Counted from the first letter of the stretch, positions 43,574 to 61,832 are shown. The stretch is 64,000 nt of DNA from Clostridiales bacterium (GCA_012519635.1 JAAYPV010000101.1:28-64027); one strand, 5' to 3'. A program made the numbers and translations. The notes: generated by a model not told the origin, from the sequence alone.

Positions 43574-43604
43574 TTAAATAATATTAATGAAAAGGAGTTT
43601 TGAT

Positions 43605-45581
43605 ATGTCAAAAAAAATGCCAGCGGTATTTACATCATTAATAATGATTGTATCGCTAATTAGTACAGGCTTTATAAGTATTGCAAATGCGAATGCAAAT
43701 GGATTTGGAGGTTATAACTGGTCTAAAACAGAAGGGTATCAGACAGGAACAACTTCTGTAAATAATTCATCTGAAGAACTAGTTGTTTCCTTTAATATTA
43801 ATCCAAATGATGCAGATGATTGTGTTGCAGGCTTTAGCAATGATGGTTCTCAAGAAGAGGACTGGACAGAATATGAAACTGTCAGCTTTTCTGTTGAAAA
43901 TCCGAACGATTTTGATATCGCACTTTCAGTTGCATTATGCACAGGTGGCAGCTGGAACTGGTGGGAAAACATTGAAACTGTTGTTTTAGCAGGCGAAACA
44001 AAGGAAATTGTTTTGAATCCACATGCAAGCGAGTGGAAATCAGCGGATACAAACTGGGTTAACAACTCTCCTGTTGCAGATTTGTTATATGTTAAGAGAG
44101 TTAATATGTTTGTAAAAACATTAGGTGATACAGTGCAGTCTGGTAGTGTTAAACTAACTAACTGGAAGGTTGTAAAATCAAGTAGTGGTGGTGATGATGA
44201 TGAGCAGCTTACTCCAGTAAAGGGATTTTATGTTGATGGTACTACACTAAAGGATGCAAATGATAATCCATTTGTAATGAGAGGTGTAAACTATGCGTTT
44301 ACATGGTATAAGGGAACTGAGGCAGTAGCATTGCCAAAGATTGCTGAATATGGTGCAAACTCAGTAAGAATCGTACTTTCCAATGGTCAACAGTGGAATA
44401 AAGATAGTGTTTCTGCAGTTAAGAATATTTTAAAAATATGCGAAGAGAACAAGCTTGTTGCTATCTTGGAGGTTCATGATGCAACTGGATATAATACGCA
44501 TGATTCATTGATGAAGGCAGCAGAGTATTTTGTAGAAATCAAGGACGCATTTGTTGGTAAGGAAGACAGAGTAATAATTAACATTGCAAATGAATGGAGA
44601 GGTGACCAGAATTCTGACGAATGGGCAACATCCTATAAAGCAGCAGTAAAGCTTTTAAGGAATGCAGGCTTGACTCACAACATAATGATTGATGCGGCTG
44701 GTTGGGGACAATATGGTAAGGCAATTCATGATAAGGGCTTGGAGGTATTTAATTCAGACCCATTGAAAAATATCATTTTTGCAATACATATGTATGGTAC
44801 AGCAGGTGGAAATGAGTCTGTAATAAAATACAATATTGACAATGTCTTAAATCAGGGTCTTGCACTATGCATTGGCGAATTTGGTTGTAATCACAGTGAT
44901 GGTGATGTTGATGAAGCAACAATAATGAGTTATTGTGAAGAAACAAATACCGGCTGGTTGGCATGGTCATGGCATGGAAATAGCAGTGATGTTGCATACC
45001 TTGATATGGTAACTGACTATAAGGGTGATACTTTGACAGAGTGGGGAGAAACAGTAGTAAATTCTATTTATGGTATGTTAAATACATCAAAAATCTGCTC
45101 TGTTTTTGAGGAAGATATAGAAAATCCTGAAACATCTGAAAGCTCAGAAACAACTGTATCTGAAACTATTGAGGATACGGAAACAACACCCTCAGAGGAG
45201 ACATCTGAAACTGAAACAACTCCCATTGAAACTAGTGATACTGATGATATTACTACTACCGATGATGGGGATGTTAGTGATATTACTACTTCAACTTCGG
45301 AAGAAACAACAGTAACATCAAGTGAAGATGATGTAGATAATAATGACGAAATTGACTGGGATAAGGTTGTTTACGGTGATGTTAATCTTGATGGAGAAAT
45401 AAGAATTACTGATATAATTGAATTCAACAAATATTTAATTGGCATACTTGAGCTTTCAGCTACTGCAAGGGAGAATGCTAACTGTGTATATGATGATAGG
45501 CTAGATGTATCTGATAATATGCAAATAGCTAAATATCTTGTTTCTCAAATTAGTAAAGAAAATTTAGGGCCAAATAAGTAA
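43605..45581 (+). CDS. Secreted GH5 glycoside hydrolase (mannanase-like, GH5_8-type motifs): N-terminal unassigned beta-sandwich-like module, acidic T/S/E/D linker, dockerin
   Basis: Signal peptide MSKKMPAVFTSLIMIVSLISTGFISIANA. GH5 acid/base INIANEW, nucleophile CIGEFG, and GWLAWSWHGN. Dockerin YGDVNLDGEIRITDIIEFNKYL...ENANCVYDDRLDVSDNMQIAKYL. ATG 43605 after AAAGGAG. Confidence 0.88.
   Translation: MSKKMPAVFTSLIMIVSLISTGFISIANANANGFGGYNWSKTEGYQTGTTSVNNSSEELVVSFNINPNDADDCVAGFSNDGSQEEDWTEYETVSFSVENPNDFDIALSVALCTGGSWNWWENIETVVLAGETKEIVLNPHASEWKSADTNWVNNSPVADLLYVKRVNMFVKTLGDTVQSGSVKLTNWKVVKSSSGGDDDEQLTPVKGFYVDGTTLKDANDNPFVMRGVNYAFTWYKGTEAVALPKIAEYGANSVRIVLSNGQQWNKDSVSAVKNILKICEENKLVAILEVHDATGYNTHDSLMKAAEYFVEIKDAFVGKEDRVIINIANEWRGDQNSDEWATSYKAAVKLLRNAGLTHNIMIDAAGWGQYGKAIHDKGLEVFNSDPLKNIIFAIHMYGTAGGNESVIKYNIDNVLNQGLALCIGEFGCNHSDGDVDEATIMSYCEETNTGWLAWSWHGNSSDVAYLDMVTDYKGDTLTEWGETVVNSIYGMLNTSKICSVFEEDIENPETSESSETTVSETIEDTETTPSEETSETETTPIETSDTDDITTTDDGDVSDITTSTSEETTVTSSEDDVDNNDEIDWDKVVYGDVNLDGEIRITDIIEFNKYLIGILELSATARENANCVYDDRLDVSDNMQIAKYLVSQISKENLGPNK
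45372..45581 (+). repeat. Dockerin-coding module, dispersed paralogous copy 2 (partner at 47-259)
   Basis: See 47-259. The two are colinear at the nucleotide level over about 210 nt. Confidence 0.7.
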
Positions 45582-45773: not shown

Positions 45774-46478
45774 ATGAAGATTTTAAATATTATTTTATCA
45801 TCGATTGGTTCAATAATTGTATTATTTGTTTTGTCTAAGCTGATAGGAAACAAGCAGATATCAAATATGACTCTGTTTGATTACATCAATGGCATAACAA
45901 TAGGCTCAATAGCTGCTGAGATGGCAACAGCCCTAGAAGGAGATTTCCTTTTGCCACTTACTGCAATGATTATTTATGGACTAGCCTCATTAGCAATTTC
46001 TTGCATAGCTACAAAATCCATTAAGCTAAGAAGATTTTTAATCGGACGCTCAATAATTCTTTTGGATAATGGAAAGCTATATAAGAAAAATCTAATGAAG
46101 GCAAGACTGGATATAAATGAGTTTTTAACACAATGTCGTGTTAACGGGTATTTCAATTTAGCGGACATTCAAACTGCTATAATTGAACCTAATGGAATGA
46201 TATCGATACTTCCTGTATCTGACAAGCGACCTGTTAATCCACAGGATTTAAATTTATCACCGGATAAGGAAAGAATAGTGACAAATGTAGTTATAGATGG
46301 TAAAATCATTTATAAAAACCTTAAATCAATGGGTAAAGAAGAGGAATGGTTAAGAAAACAGTTAAAGGATAAGTGGAATATAAGTATTAGTGATGCGTTT
46401 TTAGTGACTTATGATAGTAACAGACTTGATGCTTATGTAAAGCTTAATGATAAGCCTGTAGATGACCCTTTTCAGTAG
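45774..46478 (+). CDS. DUF421 (YetF-like) membrane protein
   Basis: MKILNIILSSIGSIIVLFVLSKLIGNKQISNMTLFDYINGITIGSIAA is typical of the DUF421 N-terminus. ATG 45774. Confidence 0.75.
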   Translation: MKILNIILSSIGSIIVLFVLSKLIGNKQISNMTLFDYINGITIGSIAAEMATALEGDFLLPLTAMIIYGLASLAISCIATKSIKLRRFLIGRSIILLDNGKLYKKNLMKARLDINEFLTQCRVNGYFNLADIQTAIIEPNGMISILPVSDKRPVNPQDLNLSPDKERIVTNVVIDGKIIYKNLKSMGKEEEWLRKQLKDKWNISISDAFLVTYDSNRLDAYVKLNDKPVDDPFQ

Positions 46479-47818
46479 TTAGCAACTGTTTTTATATTTT
46501 TTTGAATTTTTAATGGCAGCATAACAGTAACTTTAAAGAAATCATCATCATGAGAATAATTAAATACTCCATTATTCTTTTTAACAGTATCTTCTATTAG
46601 TGACAAACCATAACCATGAAGAGATTTATTAAGCTTTGTAGTCTTAATAACACCATTTTTGATATTCAACACATTATTAAATTTGTTTTTCACTGTAAAT
46701 ACAGCATAGTTTTTGTATACAAATATACTAACATCAATTTCTCTGTTGGATTCATCCAGCTTGAGTGAGGCCTCAATAGAGTTATCAAGAATATTTGAGA
46801 GTATTGTAGTCATTTCTGAAAAACTTGCATACAGTTCTGGTAGCTTATCTGCTTTTAAATTAAGTTTGATATTATTGCTTTCGCAAAATGTGATCTTACA
46901 ATTCACAATTGCATCAACAATACTATTTTCAGTTCGGCAAATATTGCTTTTGTGCTGTTGAATATAAGCAGTAAGTTCGTTAATATATTCTAAAACCTCA
47001 TTAGTTTTATTTTGGTTAATAAGCATTGAAATATTTAAAAGATTATTCTTCATATCATGCTTAATTTTTTTTATATTTTCAATCATAACATTTTGTATTT
47101 CAATTTGCTGGCATAGAGCCTTATTGGTAGTATCAGTAATATAATATTCCTTTTCCTTTTGAAAGAATAAGCATATCTGTATAAAGAAATAAACAACAAA
47201 GCAACTCATAACCAAAAAACCTGATGCGAAAATTAGGTAATGAATTAGTCCATTGTCAAGAGAAAATATACCTGATGACTGCTCCATAAATACCAATGCT
47301 ATGAAAAGGTTTACGACCATGATAATGTTAAGTAAAATCCAGTATTTTGTGGAGATATTAAAATTCAGTGCTTTAAACATTCTAGCAATAAGTAAGAAAG
47401 TAATAAGATTAACAAGCTTAGCAAATATATGTAACAATATTGAATACAAGCTACCTGTTGCCAGAATAACCTGTATAGTTTCTTCAGCAAGCATCGCAAA
47501 AATCAAGCTAATTATAATGTCAATTATTAAAAAAACATAAATACCAAGCATTGAAAAAAACAGGGTTATGTAGATTTTATCTTTATATAAAAATAAAGAA
47601 AGGAGGGGAATCAGTATTATTAACAATCCTATTCTAATTAATAAGTTTAAGTTGCTTAAAAAGTATACAATTACAGATAATACAATTACTGATGTGAATA
47701 ATAATATAGTGCTAATTTTTTTCCCATGCTTTGGGGTAAATACATTATGAAACAGAAAGTAAATCAGAAAACTATCTATAAAACAAAATACATAAGAGTA
47801 TATAGGATTGTTATTCAT
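46472..47818 (-). CDS. AgrC/ComD-type (HPK10) membrane sensor histidine kinase
   Basis: About 6-7 N-terminal TM helices. H-box IKKIKHDMKNNL, N-box ILSNILDNSIEAS, G-box HGYGLSLIE. 8-nt overlap with the RR gene. Confidence 0.85.
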   Translation of the reverse strand: MNNNPIYSYVFCFIDSFLIYFLFHNVFTPKHGKKISTILLFTSVIVLSVIVYFLSNLNLLIRIGLLIILIPLLSLFLYKDKIYITLFFSMLGIYVFLIIDIIISLIFAMLAEETIQVILATGSLYSILLHIFAKLVNLITFLLIARMFKALNFNISTKYWILLNIIMVVNLFIALVFMEQSSGIFSLDNGLIHYLIFASGFLVMSCFVVYFFIQICLFFQKEKEYYITDTTNKALCQQIEIQNVMIENIKKIKHDMKNNLLNISMLINQNKTNEVLEYINELTAYIQQHKSNICRTENSIVDAIVNCKITFCESNNIKLNLKADKLPELYASFSEMTTILSNILDNSIEASLKLDESNREIDVSIFVYKNYAVFTVKNKFNNVLNIKNGVIKTTKLNKSLHGYGLSLIEDTVKKNNGVFNYSHDDDFFKVTVMLPLKIQKNIKTVANY

Positions 47819-48557
47819 ACATAACCTCCTTGTTTACAAATTCTGTAAGCATGCTTATGACATTTTTTCTTTGTCGTCTACTTAGTGGTAATCTGCTATT
47901 ATTATCAAGTGTTACATCAATTTCATTTATTGAATAGATATATCGAATATTTACAATACAGGTACGATGAATTTCAACAAAATTTTTTTCTAAGAATTTT
48001 TCCTTTAAAGATTGAAAATGCTTTTGTGTAAGAGTATAGCATTTATTTTTTGTGTGCATATATATCGTCCTGTTTATTGATTCAAAATACATTATATCTG
48101 TAAGAGGTAATTTAATAACACTTTTCTTTTTAAATTCATTTTCAATTTCAAATATATGTAGCTCTATTTTTGCGGCAGTTGCTTCATTCAGCACTCTGGT
48201 TAGTTCGGGTTTTAATAATTGATTCAGCATATCCTTTGGAACAAAGGCATCTGCACAGTATTGGAATGTATTATATACTTCACCTTTCATAGAGGATATA
48301 AAAATAAGCTTAAAGGAGGAATTGAGTTCTCTAAGCTGTTTTGCAGTTTCCTTGCCATTAAGCTTAGGCATATCTATATCTAAAAGAATAATATCATATT
48401 GAATATCATTTTTTTTAATATTTTTTATCAGCTCTGAACCACAAGTAAATGACTGTATATTAGAAGGAAGATTTAATTCAAATAAAATCTTACCTATAGC
48501 CTCAACAAGAGTTTTAAGAAAAATTTTATCGTCATCACAAACTGCAATTTGTAACAT
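47811..48557 (-). CDS. LytR/AlgR-family response regulator (REC plus LytTR DNA-binding domain)
   Basis: MLQIAVCDDD...DIILLDIDMPKLNG receiver domain, and C-terminal LytTR (FVEIHRTCIVNIRYI). GGAGG SD immediately follows the ACP stop. Confidence 0.88.
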   Translation of the reverse strand: MLQIAVCDDDKIFLKTLVEAIGKILFELNLPSNIQSFTCGSELIKNIKKNDIQYDIILLDIDMPKLNGKETAKQLRELNSSFKLIFISSMKGEVYNTFQYCADAFVPKDMLNQLLKPELTRVLNEATAAKIELHIFEIENEFKKKSVIKLPLTDIMYFESINRTIYMHTKNKCYTLTQKHFQSLKEKFLEKNFVEIHRTCIVNIRYIYSINEIDVTLDNNSRLPLSRRQRKNVISMLTEFVNKEVMYE

Positions 48558-48567
48558 TTATACCTCC

Positions 48568-48813
48568 TTATTTTTTTGATGCATTAAGAATAATTGAAAC
48601 CATCTCTCCAACATTTTTCATAGTAGAAACTTGCTTCATGCTGAATCTCATTTTAAATGTTTTTTCAACAGCACTAATAAGGTTAATATGTTCAAGGCTA
48701 TCCCAATCCTCTATATCAGCAGCGGATGTTTCGCTATTGATTTCAATTGAATCATCATCAAAAATATCCCTAAATATCTCGGTTAATTTATTATAAACGT
48801 CTATTTCGTTCAT
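48568..48813 (-). CDS. Stand-alone acyl/peptidyl carrier protein (81 aa)
   Basis: Phosphopantetheine attachment motif EDWDSLEHINLISAVE (DSL). Its ATG directly abuts the upstream stop codon (gtt taa atg). Confidence 0.82.
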   Translation of the reverse strand: MNEIDVYNKLTEIFRDIFDDDSIEINSETSAADIEDWDSLEHINLISAVEKTFKMRFSMKQVSTMKNVGEMVSIILNASKK

Positions 48814-50610
48814 TTAAACCAACTCCTTTTCTGAATTAACAATAATAACTTTATTTTTATTCTTATAGTTTTGTAAGTCTAATTCCCAGACGATATTTCC
48901 GTTTTCATTGGAACTCAGTTGCTTAAAACCAAATTTTTCATACAAATCACTTACCATAGCGTTCTTAGCTGTTTTATAGTAGTAGCCTATAATTTTAGTT
49001 AAGTTTTTTTGTAAGCAGTTTTTAACAAGAGTATCCAGCATGGCGTATTCCATATCGCGTTTAAGAACACGACAGCTCATGAGCCATAGCTCAATATGGA
49101 GCGTAGTAGCTTCAATTTTACCTATAACAACTGAAACAATACCGTTATCTCCAAATTTATCTGCAAGTCTGCCATAGAGTTTAATATAATCATCACTTTT
49201 ATATATTTCTTGAATTTCACCTTCGGTGTATCTTTTGGTAGTGAGGTTAAACTGATTTGTTTTATTAGTAAGCTGAACGATTCTTTCGATATATACAGGC
49301 TTAAATGATTCAATAGTAGCAGTCATTTTAAGCTCTAAAAGATAATCCTCATAGCTATTAAATTTTTGCTGTTCGAGCATTCGTTGAATATTTGCTTTAT
49401 ACATATCATTTCTACTTATGTCATCGTCTGAAAAGGTTGTAACTTCAAAATATCCTGATCTGTCAAGTGTTCTTATATAACTTTCTACACTCTCCATTTT
49501 AGGTGCTTCCACCATAGGCAGACGAGATTTAACAATTTCCCGTTCAGCAGGATTATCGTCAACAAATACAATACTCTCAGGCAAAATATTAAGTTCATCT
49601 GCTATTTTAAGAATGTTTTCATCCTTATTGTCCCAATTAGCCTTGATTATCACAAAATCATCAGCAGTTAATACAGTATCAGGGTGTTTCAAACCATCAA
49701 GGGCATTTACTATATCATTTTTTGAACAAATAGTTAGCGTGATACCTAGATTTTTCAGTTGCTTAATATAGCTTTGAAAATCATGATATGCTTGTGCGAC
49801 AGGAGTTTCGTGTCCGATTTCCAGTCCAGCTTGTCCATCATCACCTACGACTCCACCCCAAAGAGTATTATCCAAATCAAGTGCCAATGCTTTTTTATTT
49901 TTGCCAAAAATGGATTTAATAATATTAGAAATATTGTAGGCAAGTTCAGGAATTGCAGATAGGCTTAAAGCATATTTATACAGATACCAATATTGTGGAT
50001 CGGACCACCTATCAAGTCCATAGCGTGCTGATAGGTAGTTGATGTCATTTATATAGAAATTATTGTTATTTTGTGCATACTCATAAAATTTTATATTTAA
50101 TAAGTTAATGAACCAGAGTTTGCCATGAATATCGCTTACATCCTTATTCCCAAGCAATCGATAGGAGGGCATTTCAAAGTTGTTTTGAATAATCGCACAA
50201 TTATATTTTTGTGCAAGACTTTGCCACATTGTTTCAAAATGACTATACTGTTTTTTAATTCGATATTCAATTGCTTCAGCGGAATTTTTCATATTAAATT
50301 CAAATTCAGTAATATTTTTAGAAGTAGTGTGAATGTAGATAATATCAGGCTTAAAGTCGTCTAGCTTAGAATTATCAAACATTGCATCCTGCCAGTATTG
50401 CCCATACTCTGATTGATAGAATATAGGCTCAATATCATTATCAAGCAGGAATAGTTCGAGTATGGAGGCTATATCATTAGTAGTTGAGCCACCTAATATT
50501 GCAATGTTTTTTTTAATTCTTGCTCTGTTTTTTTGTAGCAGTTGTTTTTTGATTTTTTTTCTGTTTTTAAGTATTTCCGAACTATCAAAAGGGTAAGTCA
50601 GTACTTGCAT
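48814..50610 (-). CDS. FkbH-like HAD-superfamily IIIC protein: unassigned N-terminal domain, HAD phosphatase core, C-terminal GNAT-like domain
   Basis: HAD motif I plus the FkbH signature ALALDLDNTLWGGVVGDDG, and VFVDDNP. The C-terminal region has QFNLTTKRYT and LWLMSCRVLKRDME. 598 aa, GGGGTGGA SD. Confidence 0.8.
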   Translation of the reverse strand: MQVLTYPFDSSEILKNRKKIKKQLLQKNRARIKKNIAILGGSTTNDIASILELFLLDNDIEPIFYQSEYGQYWQDAMFDNSKLDDFKPDIIYIHTTSKNITEFEFNMKNSAEAIEYRIKKQYSHFETMWQSLAQKYNCAIIQNNFEMPSYRLLGNKDVSDIHGKLWFINLLNIKFYEYAQNNNNFYINDINYLSARYGLDRWSDPQYWYLYKYALSLSAIPELAYNISNIIKSIFGKNKKALALDLDNTLWGGVVGDDGQAGLEIGHETPVAQAYHDFQSYIKQLKNLGITLTICSKNDIVNALDGLKHPDTVLTADDFVIIKANWDNKDENILKIADELNILPESIVFVDDNPAEREIVKSRLPMVEAPKMESVESYIRTLDRSGYFEVTTFSDDDISRNDMYKANIQRMLEQQKFNSYEDYLLELKMTATIESFKPVYIERIVQLTNKTNQFNLTTKRYTEGEIQEIYKSDDYIKLYGRLADKFGDNGIVSVVIGKIEATTLHIELWLMSCRVLKRDMEYAMLDTLVKNCLQKNLTKIIGYYYKTAKNAMVSDLYEKFGFKQLSSNENGNIVWELDLQNYKNKNKVIIVNSEKELV

Positions 50611-50630
50611 AATTATCCACCCCTAATTTG

Positions 50631-52052
50631 TTATTGTGTTCTGATTCTCTCAATATGCTTAGAGTTTCCACCGGTTGCAGAGAAGGTGTTCATAGCGAAT
50701 AATACATCGGTCACGCCATGCTCCCTCATAAAATTGATGGCATTGAGGTTAAAATATCGCATATCGATTACATAAATATTTTCAAATGAACCAGTTAGAC
50801 ATGGAACAAGAGCATTTCCATAGCTATCCTTTACTATTGCAAGCGTTCTTCCGTTTTTTACATCAGTATTTACATGAACAATGAACTCATCACTGCCCAT
50901 GAAGGTGCAGTAAAGACTACTACCATATGCCTTTATAAGCAATGGCCCCTTATGGTCGAAATTAAAGTTAGGGTCATAGTAGGTTGTAGTATATTGATTA
51001 GATGGTTTATAATAGATAAAGTCTTCGGGATTATCCTTTAAAGCAGCAACCTGTGACCAGCCGTAAAGTGTACCAACATAACCAGGCTCAATAACTTTTT
51101 CATATGTGGATAAATCCGCAAATGGAACATTAGCTTTTTTAGCGAATTCCTGTGCGGCATAGAATGCTCCAAGAGGTGCCCAGTGATGGTCTGTTCTTGA
51201 ATATATATTTTCTTTTTTATGAGGTAAAAGTGCATTATATGCATCAACTTCAATGACACCATTCAGAAATTGTCTTATATTTTCAAGATTATCTTTCTCA
51301 CTACCATATTTTTCAGCATATTTTTTTGGCATATAGAATGATTGTGCAGTTGGAGCAACTAATGAATATACATTTACACTCTCACCTAAATCTGCTTTAT
51401 AAGCGTTAACAAAGCTAGCATAATTTTGTCCAGCGGCAAAGCTACCATAATAAACGGGTATACCTCTGTTTTTATAAACCAGTATTCCGCCGCTTAAAAT
51501 TCCCTCTTCGATATCATCTATCTCATCTTCAACAGGAACAGTTTCGACTGGTACAGGTGAGCTTTCTGTTATACCTGTCGTAACATCGGTTACAGTGGGA
51601 GTTGTTTCATCAGTAGTTTGCTTAGGTGGAGGAGTTGTTTCAGTTTTCTCTGCGGATAAAGTGTCTTTTTTTGCATCCTTTTTACCTCCGTTTACATTAC
51701 CGTAAATGATGATACCATCCAATTCAATACCCATGCTTGCACGCAAGCTTGATGTCATATCCTTGAATGTACTTCTGAAGGGAACTGTATCATTATAATA
51801 ATTTGCGATATTCGCTGTATATTCACCATCAAAAAAGCTTTTTGAACTAAAGGAAGGGAACCTTGCTAATTCTCTGTTTTCAGTTTTTGAAACAGTAGGT
51901 CGTTTGCCTATTAGAAGGAACAGGGATATAGCAGCAAAAATTAAAGCAATAACAATTACATTAATTGTCTGAATGGATTTTTCAATTTGCTTTCTGTCTT
52001 TTTTTACAGGTTGTTTTAGTATAGGAATATCTATATTATCAATATTGTTCAT
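50631..52052 (-). CDS. DHHW-motif protein (AlgJ/AlgX/DltD-like SGNH-type extracytoplasmic acyltransferase), membrane-anchored
   Basis: Single N-terminal TM (VIVIALIFAAISLFLLI), T/P-rich linker, SRTDHHWAPLGAFYAAQEF motif. ATG 52052 lies 9 nt after AAGGAG; the ORF-track TTG 52061 abuts the SD. Confidence 0.82.
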   Translation of the reverse strand: MNNIDNIDIPILKQPVKKDRKQIEKSIQTINVIVIALIFAAISLFLLIGKRPTVSKTENRELARFPSFSSKSFFDGEYTANIANYYNDTVPFRSTFKDMTSSLRASMGIELDGIIIYGNVNGGKKDAKKDTLSAEKTETTPPPKQTTDETTPTVTDVTTGITESSPVPVETVPVEDEIDDIEEGILSGGILVYKNRGIPVYYGSFAAGQNYASFVNAYKADLGESVNVYSLVAPTAQSFYMPKKYAEKYGSEKDNLENIRQFLNGVIEVDAYNALLPHKKENIYSRTDHHWAPLGAFYAAQEFAKKANVPFADLSTYEKVIEPGYVGTLYGWSQVAALKDNPEDFIYYKPSNQYTTTYYDPNFNFDHKGPLLIKAYGSSLYCTFMGSDEFIVHVNTDVKNGRTLAIVKDSYGNALVPCLTGSFENIYVIDMRYFNLNAINFMREHGVTDVLFAMNTFSATGGNSKHIERIRTQ

Positions 52053-52070
52053 TAGAATCAACTCCTTATT

Positions 52071-53474
52071 TTAAAACCTGAAATATAAGAATGGGTTATT
52101 TGTAGCGTCAACAAGCATAATACTGCTTATAAGTAGCAGTGCAACATTTACTGCTACTTGCGACATATCTAATACAGCAAGCATTTTAGTTGACTTTTCT
52201 CTGAGCTTTTCAATAAATTTAGTGATTGGAAAGCAGAAAACAACAGCTATCAGTATCAAAATAATATTATTTGCAAATGAAATTTTGGTTATATCATCAA
52301 TAAAAGCATTTCCATTAATAAAGAATAGGTTTTTAAAGAAATTTAAAAGGCTTTTAAGGTTTTCAAAATAAAAAATACCAAAACCGATGAATATAATGAG
52401 CTTACTATATATATGTCGAACAATCATAGGAATTTTTTTAATTTTTTTCTTGCCAAGAAAGCTTTCTATAAAGACGAATATGCCAAAGTATAAACCCCAG
52501 ATTATATAATTCCAGCTTGCACCATGCCATAATCCTGTACAGAACCAAACCAAAAACAAGCTGGCATACTTTCTTCTCTTGCCGAATAATGGTAGGTAAA
52601 GCAAGTAGTCTTTAAAAAATGTTCCTAAGGAAATATGCCATCTTTGCCAGAATTCAGAGATATCTTTGCAAATAAATGGATAATTAAAGTTTTCATCAAA
52701 ATGGAATCCAAACATTAATCCTAAACCTATTGCCATATCGGAATATCCAGAAAAATCATAGTAAACCTGTAATGCATAAACAATTGCACCGTACCATGTT
52801 CCTATATAGGACAAGGAGGAAATATTTCCTCCTAGAATTGTATCAACTATAAGGCTTAAATTATTTGCAATTATGACCTTTTTTGCAAGCCCGATAATTA
52901 CTCGTGTAAAGCCTTTACTTAAATCAGAAATAGTTGTCTTTCTACTAGTGATTTCTTTTTCAATTGTTGAATATTTTACGATAGGTCCAGCGACAAGCTG
53001 TGGAAATAGTGATACATACATCAAAAAATTAAGGAAGCTTTTTTGAACCTTAACCTTATCCCAATAGCAGTCAATCGTATATGAAATTGTTTGGAAGGTA
53101 TAAAAGCTTATACCAATCGGTAACTTAAAGGAGGGGACAGTAAGATTAAGTGACAAAAGCTCATTTATATTGGTTACTAAAAATCCACTGTATTTAAATA
53201 TGGCAAGGATTCCTAAGTTAATTGTCAGGGAACTGATAAGAGCTATCTTTGACCAAACCTTACCCCTGAATTTATGTATCAATAATCCGTGAATATAGTC
53301 TATAAAAGCACTGAAGACCAATAAACTAACCCAAATTGGCTCTCCCCATGCATAGAAAATCAATGAAAATATAACTAAAATAATATTTCTATACTCCAAC
53401 TTTTGTGTCGATGAATAGCAAATCAAGCAAATTGGTAGGAAAAAGTATAGGAAAAATAAACTTGAAAATGTCAT
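52071..53474 (-). CDS. MBOAT-family membrane O-acyltransferase (AlgI/DltB/PatA-like)
   Basis: Polytopic. ISEFWQRWHISLGTFFKDYLLYLPL and GLWHGASWNYIIWG contain the conserved MBOAT histidine. Confidence 0.9.
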   Translation of the reverse strand: MTFSSLFFLYFFLPICLICYSSTQKLEYRNIILVIFSLIFYAWGEPIWVSLLVFSAFIDYIHGLLIHKFRGKVWSKIALISSLTINLGILAIFKYSGFLVTNINELLSLNLTVPSFKLPIGISFYTFQTISYTIDCYWDKVKVQKSFLNFLMYVSLFPQLVAGPIVKYSTIEKEITSRKTTISDLSKGFTRVIIGLAKKVIIANNLSLIVDTILGGNISSLSYIGTWYGAIVYALQVYYDFSGYSDMAIGLGLMFGFHFDENFNYPFICKDISEFWQRWHISLGTFFKDYLLYLPLFGKRRKYASLFLVWFCTGLWHGASWNYIIWGLYFGIFVFIESFLGKKKIKKIPMIVRHIYSKLIIFIGFGIFYFENLKSLLNFFKNLFFINGNAFIDDITKISFANNIILILIAVVFCFPITKFIEKLREKSTKMLAVLDMSQVAVNVALLLISSIMLVDATNNPFLYFRF

Positions 53475-53522
53475 ATTATACCCCGATTTTATTTAATGAA
53501 TTTTTATTCTACAATATAATTT

Positions 53523-53551
53523 ATTATACTACAAGAAAAGCGTAAATACAA
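53523..53551 (-). promoter_or_regulatory. Candidate sigma-A promoter of the MBOAT operon
   Basis: On the minus strand: TTGTAT (53551-53546), 17 nt, TATAAT (53528-53523), about 50 nt upstream of the MBOAT ATG. Confidence 0.5.
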
Positions 53552-53773
53552 GGGTATATGCATTATTTTAAAGAATAATTGATATTTTTAAAATATATAT
53601 TTCATGACATTTAAAATAAAAGAACATATATGATAGCTATAAAGCATTTTAAATCTCAGAAAATATCTGTTATGGCTAAAATTGTATAGTTTACATGTTA
53701 ACTGTATTTTCTAGTGTTAAAGTGCATAAGAATTAAATCTTATTAAGAGTATTCATATTTTTTCAAGTTAAAC

Positions 53774-53802
53774 TTGATTTTTTGTACTTTGTGTGGTAAA
53801 AT
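53774..53802 (+). promoter_or_regulatory. Candidate sigma-A promoter with extended -10 for metY
   Basis: TTGATT (53774-53779), 17 nt, TGgTAAAAT (53794-53802). Confidence 0.5.
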
Positions 53803-53879
53803 TAATTGGTTTGTTAAATGAGTAAAATTACTATAATTGCATCATATTTGTTATGTTTTAGGAGATAGGAGGCATAAAT

Positions 53880-59552: not shown

Positions 59553-61832
59553 TTACATATCTAATAAAATCTTTTTTAGTTGAACGCAGTCAAAAATATT
59601 GATTTTTCCATCTGTATTAATATCAGCTAACTCAGCGTCAATTTTCTTATCCATATTTAAGATAAAGCGTTTTAAATCAACTAAATCAGCTATATTTACA
59701 GAACCGTCTTTATTTACATCGCCAACCTGGTATTCAGGTATTTCCATTCCTTCAATGATTGAATAGAATGCAGGTTTTGCTTTGAAATCACCGTCGAACA
59801 ATAGAGGAACTCTATCAGAACGCCAGCTTGTTGAGTCAACTGTTCCCCAGAATACAACAGCTGTAATATTACCACCGTTATCTTTTACTTCCTTGATAGC
59901 TTTCATAATGCCCTTGTATTGTTCAGCCTGTGCTTTGAATCCAGACTCAGAAATATTGCTTTGTGTTATATCAAGCTCCGTAACTTGAATCTCAAGTCCT
60001 GTTGATGCATATTTTTCTAATGCTTCCTTGAAGAGTGAAACTGATGGATAGCTCATATCCAAGTGTGCTTGCATTCCTATACCATCAATTAATCCTTTTT
60101 CCTTTAACTCCAAGCATTTTTTATAGATGCCATCTCTTTTTGCAGGAACATATTCATTATAGTCATTATAATAGAGCTTGCAGCCTTCAGGAGCATATTT
60201 TCTTGCAAATGTAAACGCATAGTCAATAAAGGAATCATCACCGAATACTTTTACCCAAGCCGATTGACCTGGTGAAATATTATTTGAGCCAGCGTCACGC
60301 ATTGTACCTGATTCTGAGAACGCCTCATTAACAACATCCCATGCATAGAATTCTACATTTGGGTATTGAGTCTCTAATGCTTCCATGAGGTTTTTAATGT
60401 AATTTTCCATTCTAGCAATCATAACTTCTTTGGACACCCATGCACCATTGTCATCAAAATTCTCTTTAAAGAACCAATCGGGAGTTTGGCTATGCCATAC
60501 AAGAGTGTGACCTCTTACAGGAAGGTTATTTGCTTCAGCAAAGTTTAAAAGAGATTTTGCAGCAGCAAGTGATACCTGTGGATTAGTCTGGTCGCCAGTT
60601 GAATTCATGTAAGATATTGAAGCACTTTTATCTAGTACAGCATCAGGCTTTAGCTCATTTCCAAATGTTATGCTGTTAAAGTGCTTTTTAATTAATTCCT
60701 GTGTGGATTTATATGCAATTTCGCTGCTTGTAGCTGCTGTACCTATTTTAAAGTAATTCTTATATACATCTTTTAAGGATGGAATATCAGTTTCTATATC
60801 GTGAGATAAAGGCTTTGCAGAAACATCATCAATATAGAAATCCATTAAATCCTGAGATGTTGGATTTTGTGTATAAGCAGTCTGAATATATACATTAAGA
60901 CCTAAAGCATCTGAAGGGATTGCTGCATTTCCTTCAATATAAGTCCAGTTGCCCTTTGTAGCAGTTGCTCTTGCAACCTCTACATATTGGTCGATACCGT
61001 TTTGATTATACTGAAGATTTATACTAAAGGCTTGAGTATTGGAATAAGAATCACCCTTAAACATTACCCATGCACCAAAGGTATAAGCATCTCCAGGATT
61101 TAATACAGTAGATTTATTTGCAGTAACACCATTCCAGATTTGTGTTCTTTCTGAAACGAATAATGACTGACTACCTGAATGTTTTTCATCAGTTGAAATT
61201 TCAACTTTTTCTGAGCTTCTGCCGGACCAACCCATTTTACCAGTTTCAAAGTCATCAAAAAATTCACCAGCACCAACTACAATTGTTCCACTGGAATCCT
61301 CACCAATAATAGTTATGTCATCAATATAGAAATCAATCAAGCTGTCAGTTGTTTCAAAATAAATTGTATATTCAACTGCATCAGCGGGAACAGTATAAGC
61401 CCTATTAGAAATTTCAACCCATTCGCCCTTAGTTGCTGTTTCATTTGCGATAGTCACATAATTGTCTGTTCCTTCAGTATCCCTATACTTTAATTGCAGC
61501 TTTATTTCCTCTTTATCAGCACCAGTATCATACATTGCCCATGCGCTTATTTCATATGTTTTACCCGAACTAAGTACTCCGAGCATGGTTTTTCCAGCAC
61601 CGTTCCAGGATTCGGTTCTACCTGTAATTTTCAAGCACCCTGAACCATTTTTGGCATTGCCGCTTGAAATGGAAATACTGGAGCTTCCCCAACTTGTCCA
61701 GCCTTCGGTACTTGATTCAAATGTGTTGTTTAATAGTACAGTACTTTCAGCTGACATAAAATTAACAAAGGATGCAGATGTTAAAACTATAGCAGCTGAA
61801 AGAATACCAGCTATTGCTTTTTTAAAGTACAT
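59553..61832 (-). CDS. Secreted endo-1,4-beta-xylanase: two CBM22 modules, GH10 catalytic domain, canonical two-repeat dockerin
   Basis: Signal peptide MYFKKAIAGILSAAIVLTSASF. Two repeats of NNTFES/DDFETG...W...SGS.L.V..R...WNG (CBM22). GH10 motifs FGNELKPD, GHTLVWHSQTP, WDVVNEA, ITELDI. Dockerin GDVNKDGSVNIADLVDLKRFIL...ADINTDGKINIFDCVQLKKILL. Confidence 0.92.
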   Translation of the reverse strand: MYFKKAIAGILSAAIVLTSASFVNFMSAESTVLLNNTFESSTEGWTSWGSSSISISSGNAKNGSGCLKITGRTESWNGAGKTMLGVLSSGKTYEISAWAMYDTGADKEEIKLQLKYRDTEGTDNYVTIANETATKGEWVEISNRAYTVPADAVEYTIYFETTDSLIDFYIDDITIIGEDSSGTIVVGAGEFFDDFETGKMGWSGRSSEKVEISTDEKHSGSQSLFVSERTQIWNGVTANKSTVLNPGDAYTFGAWVMFKGDSYSNTQAFSINLQYNQNGIDQYVEVARATATKGNWTYIEGNAAIPSDALGLNVYIQTAYTQNPTSQDLMDFYIDDVSAKPLSHDIETDIPSLKDVYKNYFKIGTAATSSEIAYKSTQELIKKHFNSITFGNELKPDAVLDKSASISYMNSTGDQTNPQVSLAAAKSLLNFAEANNLPVRGHTLVWHSQTPDWFFKENFDDNGAWVSKEVMIARMENYIKNLMEALETQYPNVEFYAWDVVNEAFSESGTMRDAGSNNISPGQSAWVKVFGDDSFIDYAFTFARKYAPEGCKLYYNDYNEYVPAKRDGIYKKCLELKEKGLIDGIGMQAHLDMSYPSVSLFKEALEKYASTGLEIQVTELDITQSNISESGFKAQAEQYKGIMKAIKEVKDNGGNITAVVFWGTVDSTSWRSDRVPLLFDGDFKAKPAFYSIIEGMEIPEYQVGDVNKDGSVNIADLVDLKRFILNMDKKIDAELADINTDGKINIFDCVQLKKILLDM

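Follow-up and report, generated by a model that had tools for sequence, protein, structure and literature searches.

The operon and its four core proteins

We analysed a 64,000-nucleotide stretch of a Clostridiales bacterium genome (GCA_012519635.1 JAAYPV010000101.1:28-64027), hereafter the window, of which positions 45,774 to 53,551 are shown above. Six tightly packed genes on its minus strand (46472-53474) form an operon encoding, in order, an MBOAT, a DHHW-family protein, an FkbH-like protein, a carrier protein, a response regulator and a sensor kinase, with intergenic gaps of 9, 20, 0 and 10 nt and one 8-nt overlap between regulator and kinase. We consider it probable, at roughly 60%, that the four upstream genes encode an MBOAT-SGNH pathway that depends on a carrier protein and esterifies a glycopolymer outside the cytoplasm, with glyceryl as the most likely acyl group. 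The features of these four genes are the following:

52071-53474, minus strand: MBOAT of 467 aa, polytopic, with PatA/AlgI architecture (PF03062, 1.7e-23)
52074-52091, minus strand: codons of the FXYXXF hexapeptide (FLYFRF, residues 462-467, with Tyr464; MBOAT C-terminus ...NPFLYFRF), the motif being defined as in PMC12148441
50631-52061, minus strand: DHHW-family SGNH-like transferase of 476 aa (PF14286, 1.9e-44; ALGX, 6.6e-7)
48814-50610, minus strand: FkbH-like loader of 598 aa (TIGR01686, TIGR01681, PF21211)
48568-48813, minus strand: dedicated carrier protein of 81 aa (PF00550, 8.9e-5), predicted phosphopantetheine site Ser39

A preliminary description of this DNA had given the six genes with their order and spacings, and all of the open reading frames (ORFs) were found where it had placed them, as was each of the protein motifs that it had quoted. 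Profile searches with Pfam and TIGRFAM models upheld all of its family assignments.

The MBOAT has the DltB structures 8JEM and 6BUG as its best solved relatives (5e-24), and its two motif histidines, His280 of WHISL (67/68) and His317 of GLWHG (68/68), are both in register with the motifs of DltB. With the DltB equivalog model TIGR04091 the protein scored 140.9 bits, far under the cut-off of 375. Past the DltB-aligned core the protein continues with two additional hydrophobic segments, at residues 403-421 and 437-455, and ends in FLYFRF, whose Tyr464 is conserved in 68 of 68 sequences. In MBOATs of the PatA type, two extra helices bear a C-terminal FXYXXF "acyl shuttle", the tyrosine of which gets acetylated (PMC12148441, JBC 2025), and in Dlt the same motif sits on a separate microprotein, DltX, which carries D-Ala-Tyr (PMC12148441). 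Judged by its sequence, the terminal FLYFRF is the acyl-shuttle motif of the PatA type. Among the MBOAT ORFs linked to genes for an FkbH-like protein and an acyl carrier protein (ACP), 69 of 75 end in FxYxx plus a hydrophobic residue, in both of the gene layouts described below; the other six are L046 (...ESLYAQF, apparently full-length) and five truncated ORFs. The window protein thus shares with the PatA/PatB type the catalytic histidine, the FXYXXF motif fused on two extra helices and the adjacent SGNH-like partner, but it departs from that type in its donor supply, expected there to be acyl-CoA without a carrier, as a carrier and a loader are encoded in the same operon and are co-conserved with it.

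The DHHW protein consists of an N-terminal anchor (residues 33-51, its single hydrophobic segment), a Thr/Pro-rich linker and an extracytoplasmic catalytic domain. It scored 152.9 bits against PF14286, where the cut-off is 25, and its catalytic domain matched 4NZK from Eubacterium siraeum, a structure of unassigned function (7.8e-76), and B. cereus PatB1 (5V8D, 7.2e-9). The catalytic blocks described for PatB1 are DHHW (Block V) and DxRY (Block II) (PMC9487903), and here 28-30 of 30 sequences retain D291-H292-H293-W294, Ser413 (KDSYGN) and D433-x-R435-Y436, so that both blocks and the serine nucleophile of the family are present. 4NZK is closest to the FkbH-linked DHHW proteins, with 45-60% identity.

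The 598-aa protein had been described as FkbH-like, and the assignment is borne out by a score of 271.4 bits against the curated model TIGR01686 (cut-off 146.65; residues 239-563, covering model positions 3-320 of 323), by 72.8 bits against the HAD-IIIC model TIGR01681 (cut-off 35.75) and by the sequence hallmarks of the family, namely the domain model, the HAD motifs, the C-terminal cysteine and an adjacent dedicated ACP. Three domains were distinguished: an SGNH-like FkbH_N domain (1 to about 235; PF21211, 2e-14), a HAD-IIIC phosphatase (about 240-390) and a GNAT-fold domain with Cys513 (about 400-598). FkbH_N and the HAD part match 3SLR, an uncharacterised structural-genomics entry (B. fragilis BF1531; 5e-51), and the full-length model (pLDDT 74.5) shows a GNAT fold for the C-terminal third, with a Foldseek TM of about 0.7 on the target. 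The model of FkbH_N (window 49906-50610, minus strand; pLDDT 81.6) resembles GDSL/SGNH acylhydrolases (Foldseek 4IYJ, 4PPY and 4HF7, E 1e-5 to 1e-3); this domain has an invariant GGST (40-44), H94, QNN (142-144) and D189, and lacks a DxxH block.

The pairing of a HAD catalytic Asp pair with an acyl-accepting cysteine was checked on an alignment of homologues. D245, D247 and T249 (DxDxT), S296, K297, N298, D351, D352 and C513 (in LMSCRVLKR) are all conserved in 84 of 84, and they are in register with a homologue from a zwittermicin-type cluster. The latter is a 359-aa HAD-IIIC protein encoded on plasmid pBMB431 of B. thuringiensis HD-1, within the gene order hybrid nonribosomal peptide synthetase/polyketide synthase (NRPS/PKS), LLM oxidoreductase, ABC exporter, HAD-IIIC, NRPS. 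We take this order to be zwittermicin zmaK-zmaO, which would put the HAD-IIIC protein at the position of ZmaN, the FkbH homologue. It aligns with residues 236-598 of the window protein over 346 positions with 28% identity (E 1e-30), and DLDxT (DLDCT in the plasmid protein), SKN, DD and LMSCRV are all in register. A cysteine of the C-terminal domain reportedly accepts the acyl group in OzmB. On the strength of that work and of the published S-enzyme intermediate (PMC9057759), Cys513 is the probable acyl acceptor here: OzmB (366 aa) converts 1,3-bisphosphoglycerate through phosphoglyceryl-S-enzyme and glyceryl-S-enzyme to glyceryl-ACP (PMC9057759; PMC7489565).

The carrier gene directly abuts the FkbH-like gene (0-nt gap). 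Its product has Ser39 within W-D-S-L-E-H, Trp37 and Ser39 being conserved in 81 of 81 sequences, and scores under the cut-off for every fatty-acid ACP model tested. The nearest solved chain is 2LML, a "putative ACP" (2.4e-18), and the search of the PDB at E<=10 returned no chain named DltC or D-alanyl carrier protein. As the FkbH-like protein, the carrier and the response regulator have no hydrophobic segments, all three are expected to be cytoplasmic.

Conservation of the module across genomes

We asked how widely the four genes occur together. When one genome per species was scanned, at least 573 relatives came to light, and the best 80 loci were analysed, 50 of them being well flanked, with at least 4.5 kb on both sides. 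Results showed an ACP homologue in 77 of the 80 loci (48/50 of the well-flanked ones), adjacent to the FkbH gene in 70 (45/50), and a same-strand MBOAT within 8 kb of the FkbH gene in 64 (40/50), while a DHHW gene was present in 31 (18/50). Genes for a PKS, a fatty-acid synthase (FAS), a ketosynthase (KS), a FabH-like enzyme, an acyltransferase (AT), a dehydrogenase, an oxidase or a methyltransferase were found neither near the operon in the window nor in the loci examined in detail. The carrier is therefore unlikely to be a component of an unrelated fatty-acid or polyketide pathway, a possibility that the preliminary description had left standing.

In layout A, that of the window (MBOAT-DHHW-FkbH-ACP), the four-gene core keeps the same order in about 30 species-level genomes of Oscillospiraceae, Ruminococcus and relatives, including R. 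flavefaciens 007c, and it is thus conserved as a unit. Because the core recurs in this way in many genomes, the gene arrangement is not due to chance. Metagenomic contigs with 62-66%-identical FkbH homologues keep the order in different surroundings and have no two-component system, and those with a 79%-identical homologue have all six genes together with the flanks of the window. Some loci carry two to four tandem DHHW paralogues before FkbH-ACP (L072 3788-7979, L084 3617-7955, L078 5185-7967 and L062 5100-7980), which may reflect several acceptor specificities.

Layout B, in about 33 further genomes, has the order FkbH-ACP-(divergent MBOAT), usually followed by another SGNH-like partner. Its hosts are Lachnospiraceae, Christensenellaceae, Eisenbergiella tayi DSM 26961, an Odoribacter contig and metagenome-assembled genomes labelled as Bacilli. 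The partner that follows the MBOAT is a protein of 310-515 aa with an N-terminal anchor (for example L079 8886-9902 and L026 11537-12601, with 15 further loci), in which D49, G54, S56, G72, G177 and H283 (GGS ... DLRH) are invariant. A Pfam search with it gave no match. It appears to be an undescribed SGNH-like family, a reading that we draw from the conserved GGS/G/DxxH pattern and the anchor and from nothing else; a relationship to the DHHW proteins was rejected, hhalign giving it a probability of 0.9%.

The contexts of two such modules contain glycan genes. In E. tayi the module is flanked by GT2, YdjC, DUF6056 and GDSL genes, which are glycan-modification genes. On S. meliloti pSymB (L087 5054-10089; CP140955.1 1048481-1053516) it comprises, in this order, an MBOAT with the C-terminus FLYQGF, an anchored protein of 409 aa, an ACP and an FkbH-like protein of 628 aa, and genes for the synthesis and export of capsule (Capsule_synth, ABC transporter, RkpR, KpsF) lie at a distance of about 4 kb. 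The 409-aa protein is annotated as a "TonB-dependent receptor" without Pfam support and, with its GGST...DPGH, looks instead like an SGNH-like protein with an anchor. The module is widespread among the Clostridia of gut and rumen and was also seen at single loci in Bacteroidales, Synergistales and rhizobia. Taken together, the linkage of FkbH-ACP to an MBOAT spans two divergent MBOAT subfamilies, several phyla and three kinds of SGNH-like partner, namely DHHW, the family without a Pfam match (transmembrane segment plus GGS...DxxH) and, at L085, an AlgX-like protein.

A proposed pathway and its alternatives

MBOAT-SGNH pairs are the main bacterial route for acylating wall and surface polymers, as in the D-alanylation of teichoic acids and the O-acetylation of peptidoglycan, alginate and cellulose as well as secondary cell wall polysaccharide (SCWP), and these acylations control how cells resist lysozyme and cationic peptides, their autolysis and their recognition by the immune system. 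According to the current picture, Dlt alone uses a carrier protein and the remaining pathways use acyl-CoA (PMC12148441). The preliminary description had said of AlgI/AlgJ/AlgX and PatA/PatB that they have no dedicated carrier, and that 2025 paper says the same of the non-Dlt MBOAT/SGNH pathways (PMC12148441).

The operon resembles PatA1/PatB1, which O-acetylate SCWP in Bacillus cereus/anthracis, and the clostridial CcsH/CcsI in combining an MBOAT with an anchored DHHW SGNH-like partner, with the same DHHW, Ser nucleophile and DxRY blocks and an MBOAT whose C-terminal FXYXXF is fused. The difference lies in the donor, taken as acetyl-CoA in those systems, which have no carrier and no loader, whereas the operon has an ACP and an FkbH-like loader. 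With Dlt it would share the overall logic, in which a cytoplasmic loader charges a small carrier, the thioester feeds an MBOAT and the acyl group passes from the FXYXXF tyrosine to an SGNH-like protein and to the polymer. The components differ, however. The loader is an FkbH-type HAD phosphatase/acyltransferase and not an adenylating ligase such as DltA, and an AMP-binding family was matched by none of the six operon proteins and was not seen in those related loci that were examined. The carrier does not resemble DltC, the shuttle is fused to the MBOAT and not borne by DltX, for which there is no space as a small ORF between promoter and MBOAT gene, the partner is DHHW/ALGX-like and not DltD, and the predicted group is glyceryl instead of D-alanyl. 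None of the components that define Dlt (DltA, the DltB equivalog, a DltC-type carrier, DltX, DltD) was therefore recognised. Considering the fused FXYXXF, the absence of DltX, the DHHW partner in place of DltD and a DltB score far under its cut-off, we assign the machinery to the PatA/PatB1 type and not to Dlt. The preliminary description had spoken of Dlt logic with an FkbH loader; the carrier-fed MBOAT/SGNH module that this implied is supported, but its architecture is PatA/PatB1-like and it is not a Dlt variant.

The FkbH/OzmB/ZmaN systems have in common with the operon a HAD-IIIC protein with DxDxT, an LMSCRV cysteine in the C-terminal domain and an adjacent dedicated ACP. There the glyceryl-ACP feeds a PKS/NRPS (methoxymalonyl, hydroxymalonyl, tetronate), and OzmB and the protein at the ZmaN position lack the N-domain of about 235 aa. 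In the operon, by contrast, no synthase is encoded and the MBOAT and SGNH-like transferase are the only possible consumers. The route from the MBOAT C-terminal tyrosine to an SGNH serine and to the polymer, as shown for Gram-negative PatA/PatB, is most likely common to the operon, although there the donor is acetyl-CoA, PatB belongs to another SGNH family and MurNAc O-6 serves as the acceptor. Cj1302, of the Campylobacter jejuni flagellar glycosylation locus, is likewise an FkbH-domain protein whose context is glycan modification and not polyketide synthesis, and we take that locus to hold extra ACP genes. Cj1302 differs in being uncharacterised and without an MBOAT/SGNH pair, and its modification is presumed to be cytoplasmic and on a nonulosonate sugar.

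Computation showed which genes are present, their domain folds and catalytic motifs, cues to membrane topology and the conservation of the linkage, and the pathway that we propose builds on these. In the cytoplasm, the FkbH-like enzyme would take an acyl phosphate, most likely 1,3-bisphosphoglycerate, capturing the acyl group on Cys513 of the GNAT-fold domain, and the 3-phosphate would be removed at the HAD Asp245/Asp247 site. The glyceryl would be received by the neighbouring 81-aa carrier, on the thiol of the phosphopantetheine at Ser39, and the glyceryl-S-carrier would dock at the cytoplasmic face of the MBOAT. Through its His317 the latter would take the acyl group across the membrane and attach it to Tyr464 within its own FLYFRF hexapeptide, from which the anchored DHHW protein would accept it on Ser413 and pass it to a hydroxyl group in a glycopolymer of the wall or surface. 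We infer the hand-off from carrier to MBOAT, the glyceryl substrate and the acceptor polymer from these observations, and the analogy with PatA/PatB and Dlt leads us to propose acyl-Tyr and acyl-Ser as intermediates. That FkbH-ACP is coupled to the MBOAT is argued by the conserved core, which has no other enzyme able to use an acyl-ACP, and by the linkage to FXYXXF-type MBOATs, which persists across subfamilies, partners and phyla.

Several observations weigh against this pathway. The FkbH-like protein is just 28% identical to the zwittermicin-cluster homologue and has an SGNH-like N-domain of about 235 aa that is extra with respect to OzmB (366 aa) and the ZmaN-position protein (359 aa), so its substrate could differ, and the carrier is not DltC-like. 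At ten of the 50 well-flanked loci an MBOAT is missing within 8 kb. Some Ruminiclostridium loci (L062, L063, L082) read DHHW-DHHW-FkbH-ACP with no MBOAT in that distance, and a substitute acyltransferase was not found near the MBOAT-less loci, the neighbours there being housekeeping genes. A C. perfringens plasmid (NZ_CP148714.1; L090 6082-7957) has ACP-FkbH without an annotated MBOAT, and a Ralstonia FkbH domain lies inside a megasynthase. Moreover, no glycan-synthesis genes adjoin the operon in the window to point to an acceptor, and we know of no report of a glyceroyl-esterified wall polymer from these Clostridia. On the mobilisable C. perfringens plasmid the neighbours of ACP-FkbH are genes for a nucleotidyltransferase, a VOC protein and two ABC transporter genes, suggesting a further, different use of FkbH-loaded carriers.

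Our confidence in glyceryl as the specific acyl group, which rests on the analogy with characterised FkbH enzymes, is lower than in the general mechanism. The same machinery could be loaded by the FkbH-like enzyme with another phospho-activated hydroxy-acid or acyl unit, selected or edited by the N-domain or by a diverged active site, which we regard as unlikely, though the strongest of the alternatives. The SGNH-like FkbH_N domain with its invariant GGST, H94, QNN and D189, missing from OzmB and the ZmaN-position protein, and the identity of merely 28% to the zwittermicin-cluster homologue would fit such a substrate. On the other hand, the phosphatase and Cys motifs are strictly conserved and therefore argue for the same two-step chemistry. 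As far as we know, every characterised FkbH-family enzyme uses 1,3-bisphosphoglycerate to make glyceryl-ACP, and those of the papers cited here do so (PMC9057759, PMC7489565).

It is less probable still that MBOAT and DHHW form an ordinary acetyl-CoA-dependent pair of the PatA1/PatB1 type, with FkbH and carrier performing a separate cytoplasmic step on the same polymer, such as the supply of a unit derived from glycerate, and standing beside the pair only because of that common product. Carrier-free MBOAT/DHHW pairs that use acetyl-CoA do exist (PatA1/PatB1, CcsH/CcsI), the window MBOAT has the fused shuttle of PatA and not the architecture of DltB, and FkbH-ACP occurs without a nearby MBOAT at some loci. 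However, the MBOAT is the sole transferase encoded in the core that could use an acyl-ACP, the link of FkbH-ACP to an MBOAT holds for two subfamilies of the latter, with three families of partner and in several phyla, and in the window and its near relatives the core stands among unrelated housekeeping genes with no polymer synthesis genes. Finally, that FkbH and carrier are part of a route to small molecules (polyketide, tetronate or lipid) and stand beside MBOAT/DHHW by coincidence is very improbable: although the FkbH-like and glyceryl-ACP papers retrieved are all on natural products and FkbH domains are found in megasynthases, no KS, FabH-like, AT, dehydrogenase or methyltransferase gene was seen near the operon or in the loci examined in detail, and the conservation of the linkage in dozens of genomes rules out coincidence.

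The most specific form of the glyceryl pathway, in which the operon is the second carrier-dependent MBOAT-SGNH pathway after Dlt and the first with an FkbH-type loader, turning the glycolytic intermediate 1,3-bisphosphoglycerate, by way of glyceryl-S-ACP and a shuttling acyl-tyrosine, into glyceroyl esters on surface glycopolymers, is put forward tentatively, at a little under even odds. Literature searches combining FkbH/HAD-IIIC with MBOAT/DltB/AlgI in an envelope context found no paper, and those on BF1531, EUBSIR_00411, Cj1302, GmACP3 and DHHW found no description of the module, although in both cases a description in a subscription journal is possible. A characterised pathway with the same gene set, which would have spoken against the novelty claimed in the preliminary description, was thus not found in the literature searched, and within it an FkbH-type supply of the acyl group to MBOAT-SGNH machinery is not described before. 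If true, the pathway would be a new solution to the donor supply of MBOAT-SGNH systems and would predict glycerate as a new ester substituent of the surface glycans carried by rhizobia and by abundant commensals of gut and rumen. It would also give a role in primary metabolism, outside polyketide synthesis, to the "HAD-IIIC family phosphatase" group of more than 8000 protein clusters: the FkbH-like family has >8000 cluster-level homologues which are named, if at all, "HAD-IIIC family phosphatase", "HAD family hydrolase" or "FkbH-like protein". As the module is present in tractable hosts (S. meliloti, Eisenbergiella tayi DSM 26961 and Ruminococcus flavefaciens 007c) and the structure 4NZK exists already, material for its study is at hand.

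Expression signals, two-component system and surroundings

The remaining features of the operon are the promoter-like sequence before the MBOAT gene and the two regulatory genes at the downstream end:

53523-53551, minus strand: putative sigma-70-type promoter, TTGTAT (53551-53546), 17-nt spacer, TATAAT (53528-53523), read directly
47811-48557, minus strand: response regulator of 248 aa, receiver plus LytTR (PF00072, 7e-14; PF04397, 3.9e-17)
46472-47818, minus strand: sensor histidine kinase of 448 aa, GHKL (HATPase_c_5; PF14501, 2.1e-20)

The preliminary description had given every gene its own Shine-Dalgarno sequence. This holds for five of the six, which have AAGGAG or GGAGG upstream, but not for the MBOAT gene, which has GGGG only. 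At the DHHW gene AAGGAG directly abuts the listed TTG start, for which reason the ATG at codon 4 (52052), with normal spacing, is the likelier start; the gap to the MBOAT gene is then 18 nt. TTGTAT-17-TATAAT is present as had been described (53551-53523). A consensus scan found 56 promoter-like sites, against 50.4 +/- 8.2 in shuffled sequence, and since such sites are thus not commoner than in shuffles, this one alone means little. It is kept as TTGTAA-17-TATAAT in the 79%-identical relative L005, where the flanking intergenic DNA has diverged with indels. An Rfam search of the 405-nt intergenic region upstream gave no riboswitch or leader RNA match. The operon is somewhat more AT-rich than its host (parts have 28-31% G+C, compared with about 35%) and lies on the strand opposite to most genes of the window.

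The two-component genes are co-directional with the core, beginning 10 nt after the ACP gene and overlapping each other by 8 nt, and the N-terminal part of the kinase (residues 5 to 219) contains about six hydrophobic segments. Next to the ACP gene the pair was found only in the 79% relatives L005 and L006, and it is missing there from L001-L004 and from all 80 genome loci. Because it is absent at that position from all the more distant loci, the two-component system is a lineage-specific add-on outside the conserved module. The operon therefore does have its own LytTR system, as had been claimed, and the 79% relatives keep it, but it is not part of what is conserved. The further label of an AgrC-type kinase fits as to class (LytTR/HATPase_c_5, polytopic) but not as to linked AgrB/AgrD-like genes, none of which is adjacent (the neighbours are DUF421, GH5 and ACP genes), small peptide ORFs not having been searched exhaustively. 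Regulation of the operon by this system is plausible, and in this lineage only it would presumably tune expression.

Upstream of the operon, at 53690-53719 on the minus strand, there are two TTAACA-containing repeats 19 nt apart, one of which, ACAGTTAAC, we take to be close to the AgrA-box consensus. As autoregulatory LytTR boxes they were rejected, as the closest relative to share the two-component system lacks this stretch, and the comparison with that relative found no conserved LytTR-type repeats upstream of the operon. In 65%-identical relatives (L001 10133-10354; L002; L003) a 73-aa ORF without a Pfam match follows the ACP gene in place of the two-component system. At the downstream end, the 3' ends of the kinase gene and of a convergent DUF421 (YetF-like) gene overlap by 7 nt (46472-46478), with no terminator-like hairpin between them.

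On one side the operon is flanked by genes for enolase, an epimerase, a GH5 cellulase and DUF421, and on the other by genes for a MetY-like enzyme, ParE/ParC and a GH10-dockerin xylanase. The GH5 cellulase (43587-45581) has a dockerin-like C-terminus and the xylanase (59553-61832) has the order CBM4_9-GH10-dockerin; with dockerin-type GH5 and GH10 enzymes on its flanks, the host is therefore taken to be a cellulosome-bearing fibre degrader resembling Ruminococcus. Within the 405-nt intergenic region before the MetY-like gene (53880), a block of about 45 nt without an Rfam match (53772-53816), with the minus-strand sequence AAACCAATTAATTTTACCA..AAGTA.AAAAAATCAAGTTT, differs very little between the window and L005 in a spacer that has otherwise diverged. 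This block may be a regulatory site of the divergent gene, which encodes a Cys/Met pyridoxal-phosphate enzyme.

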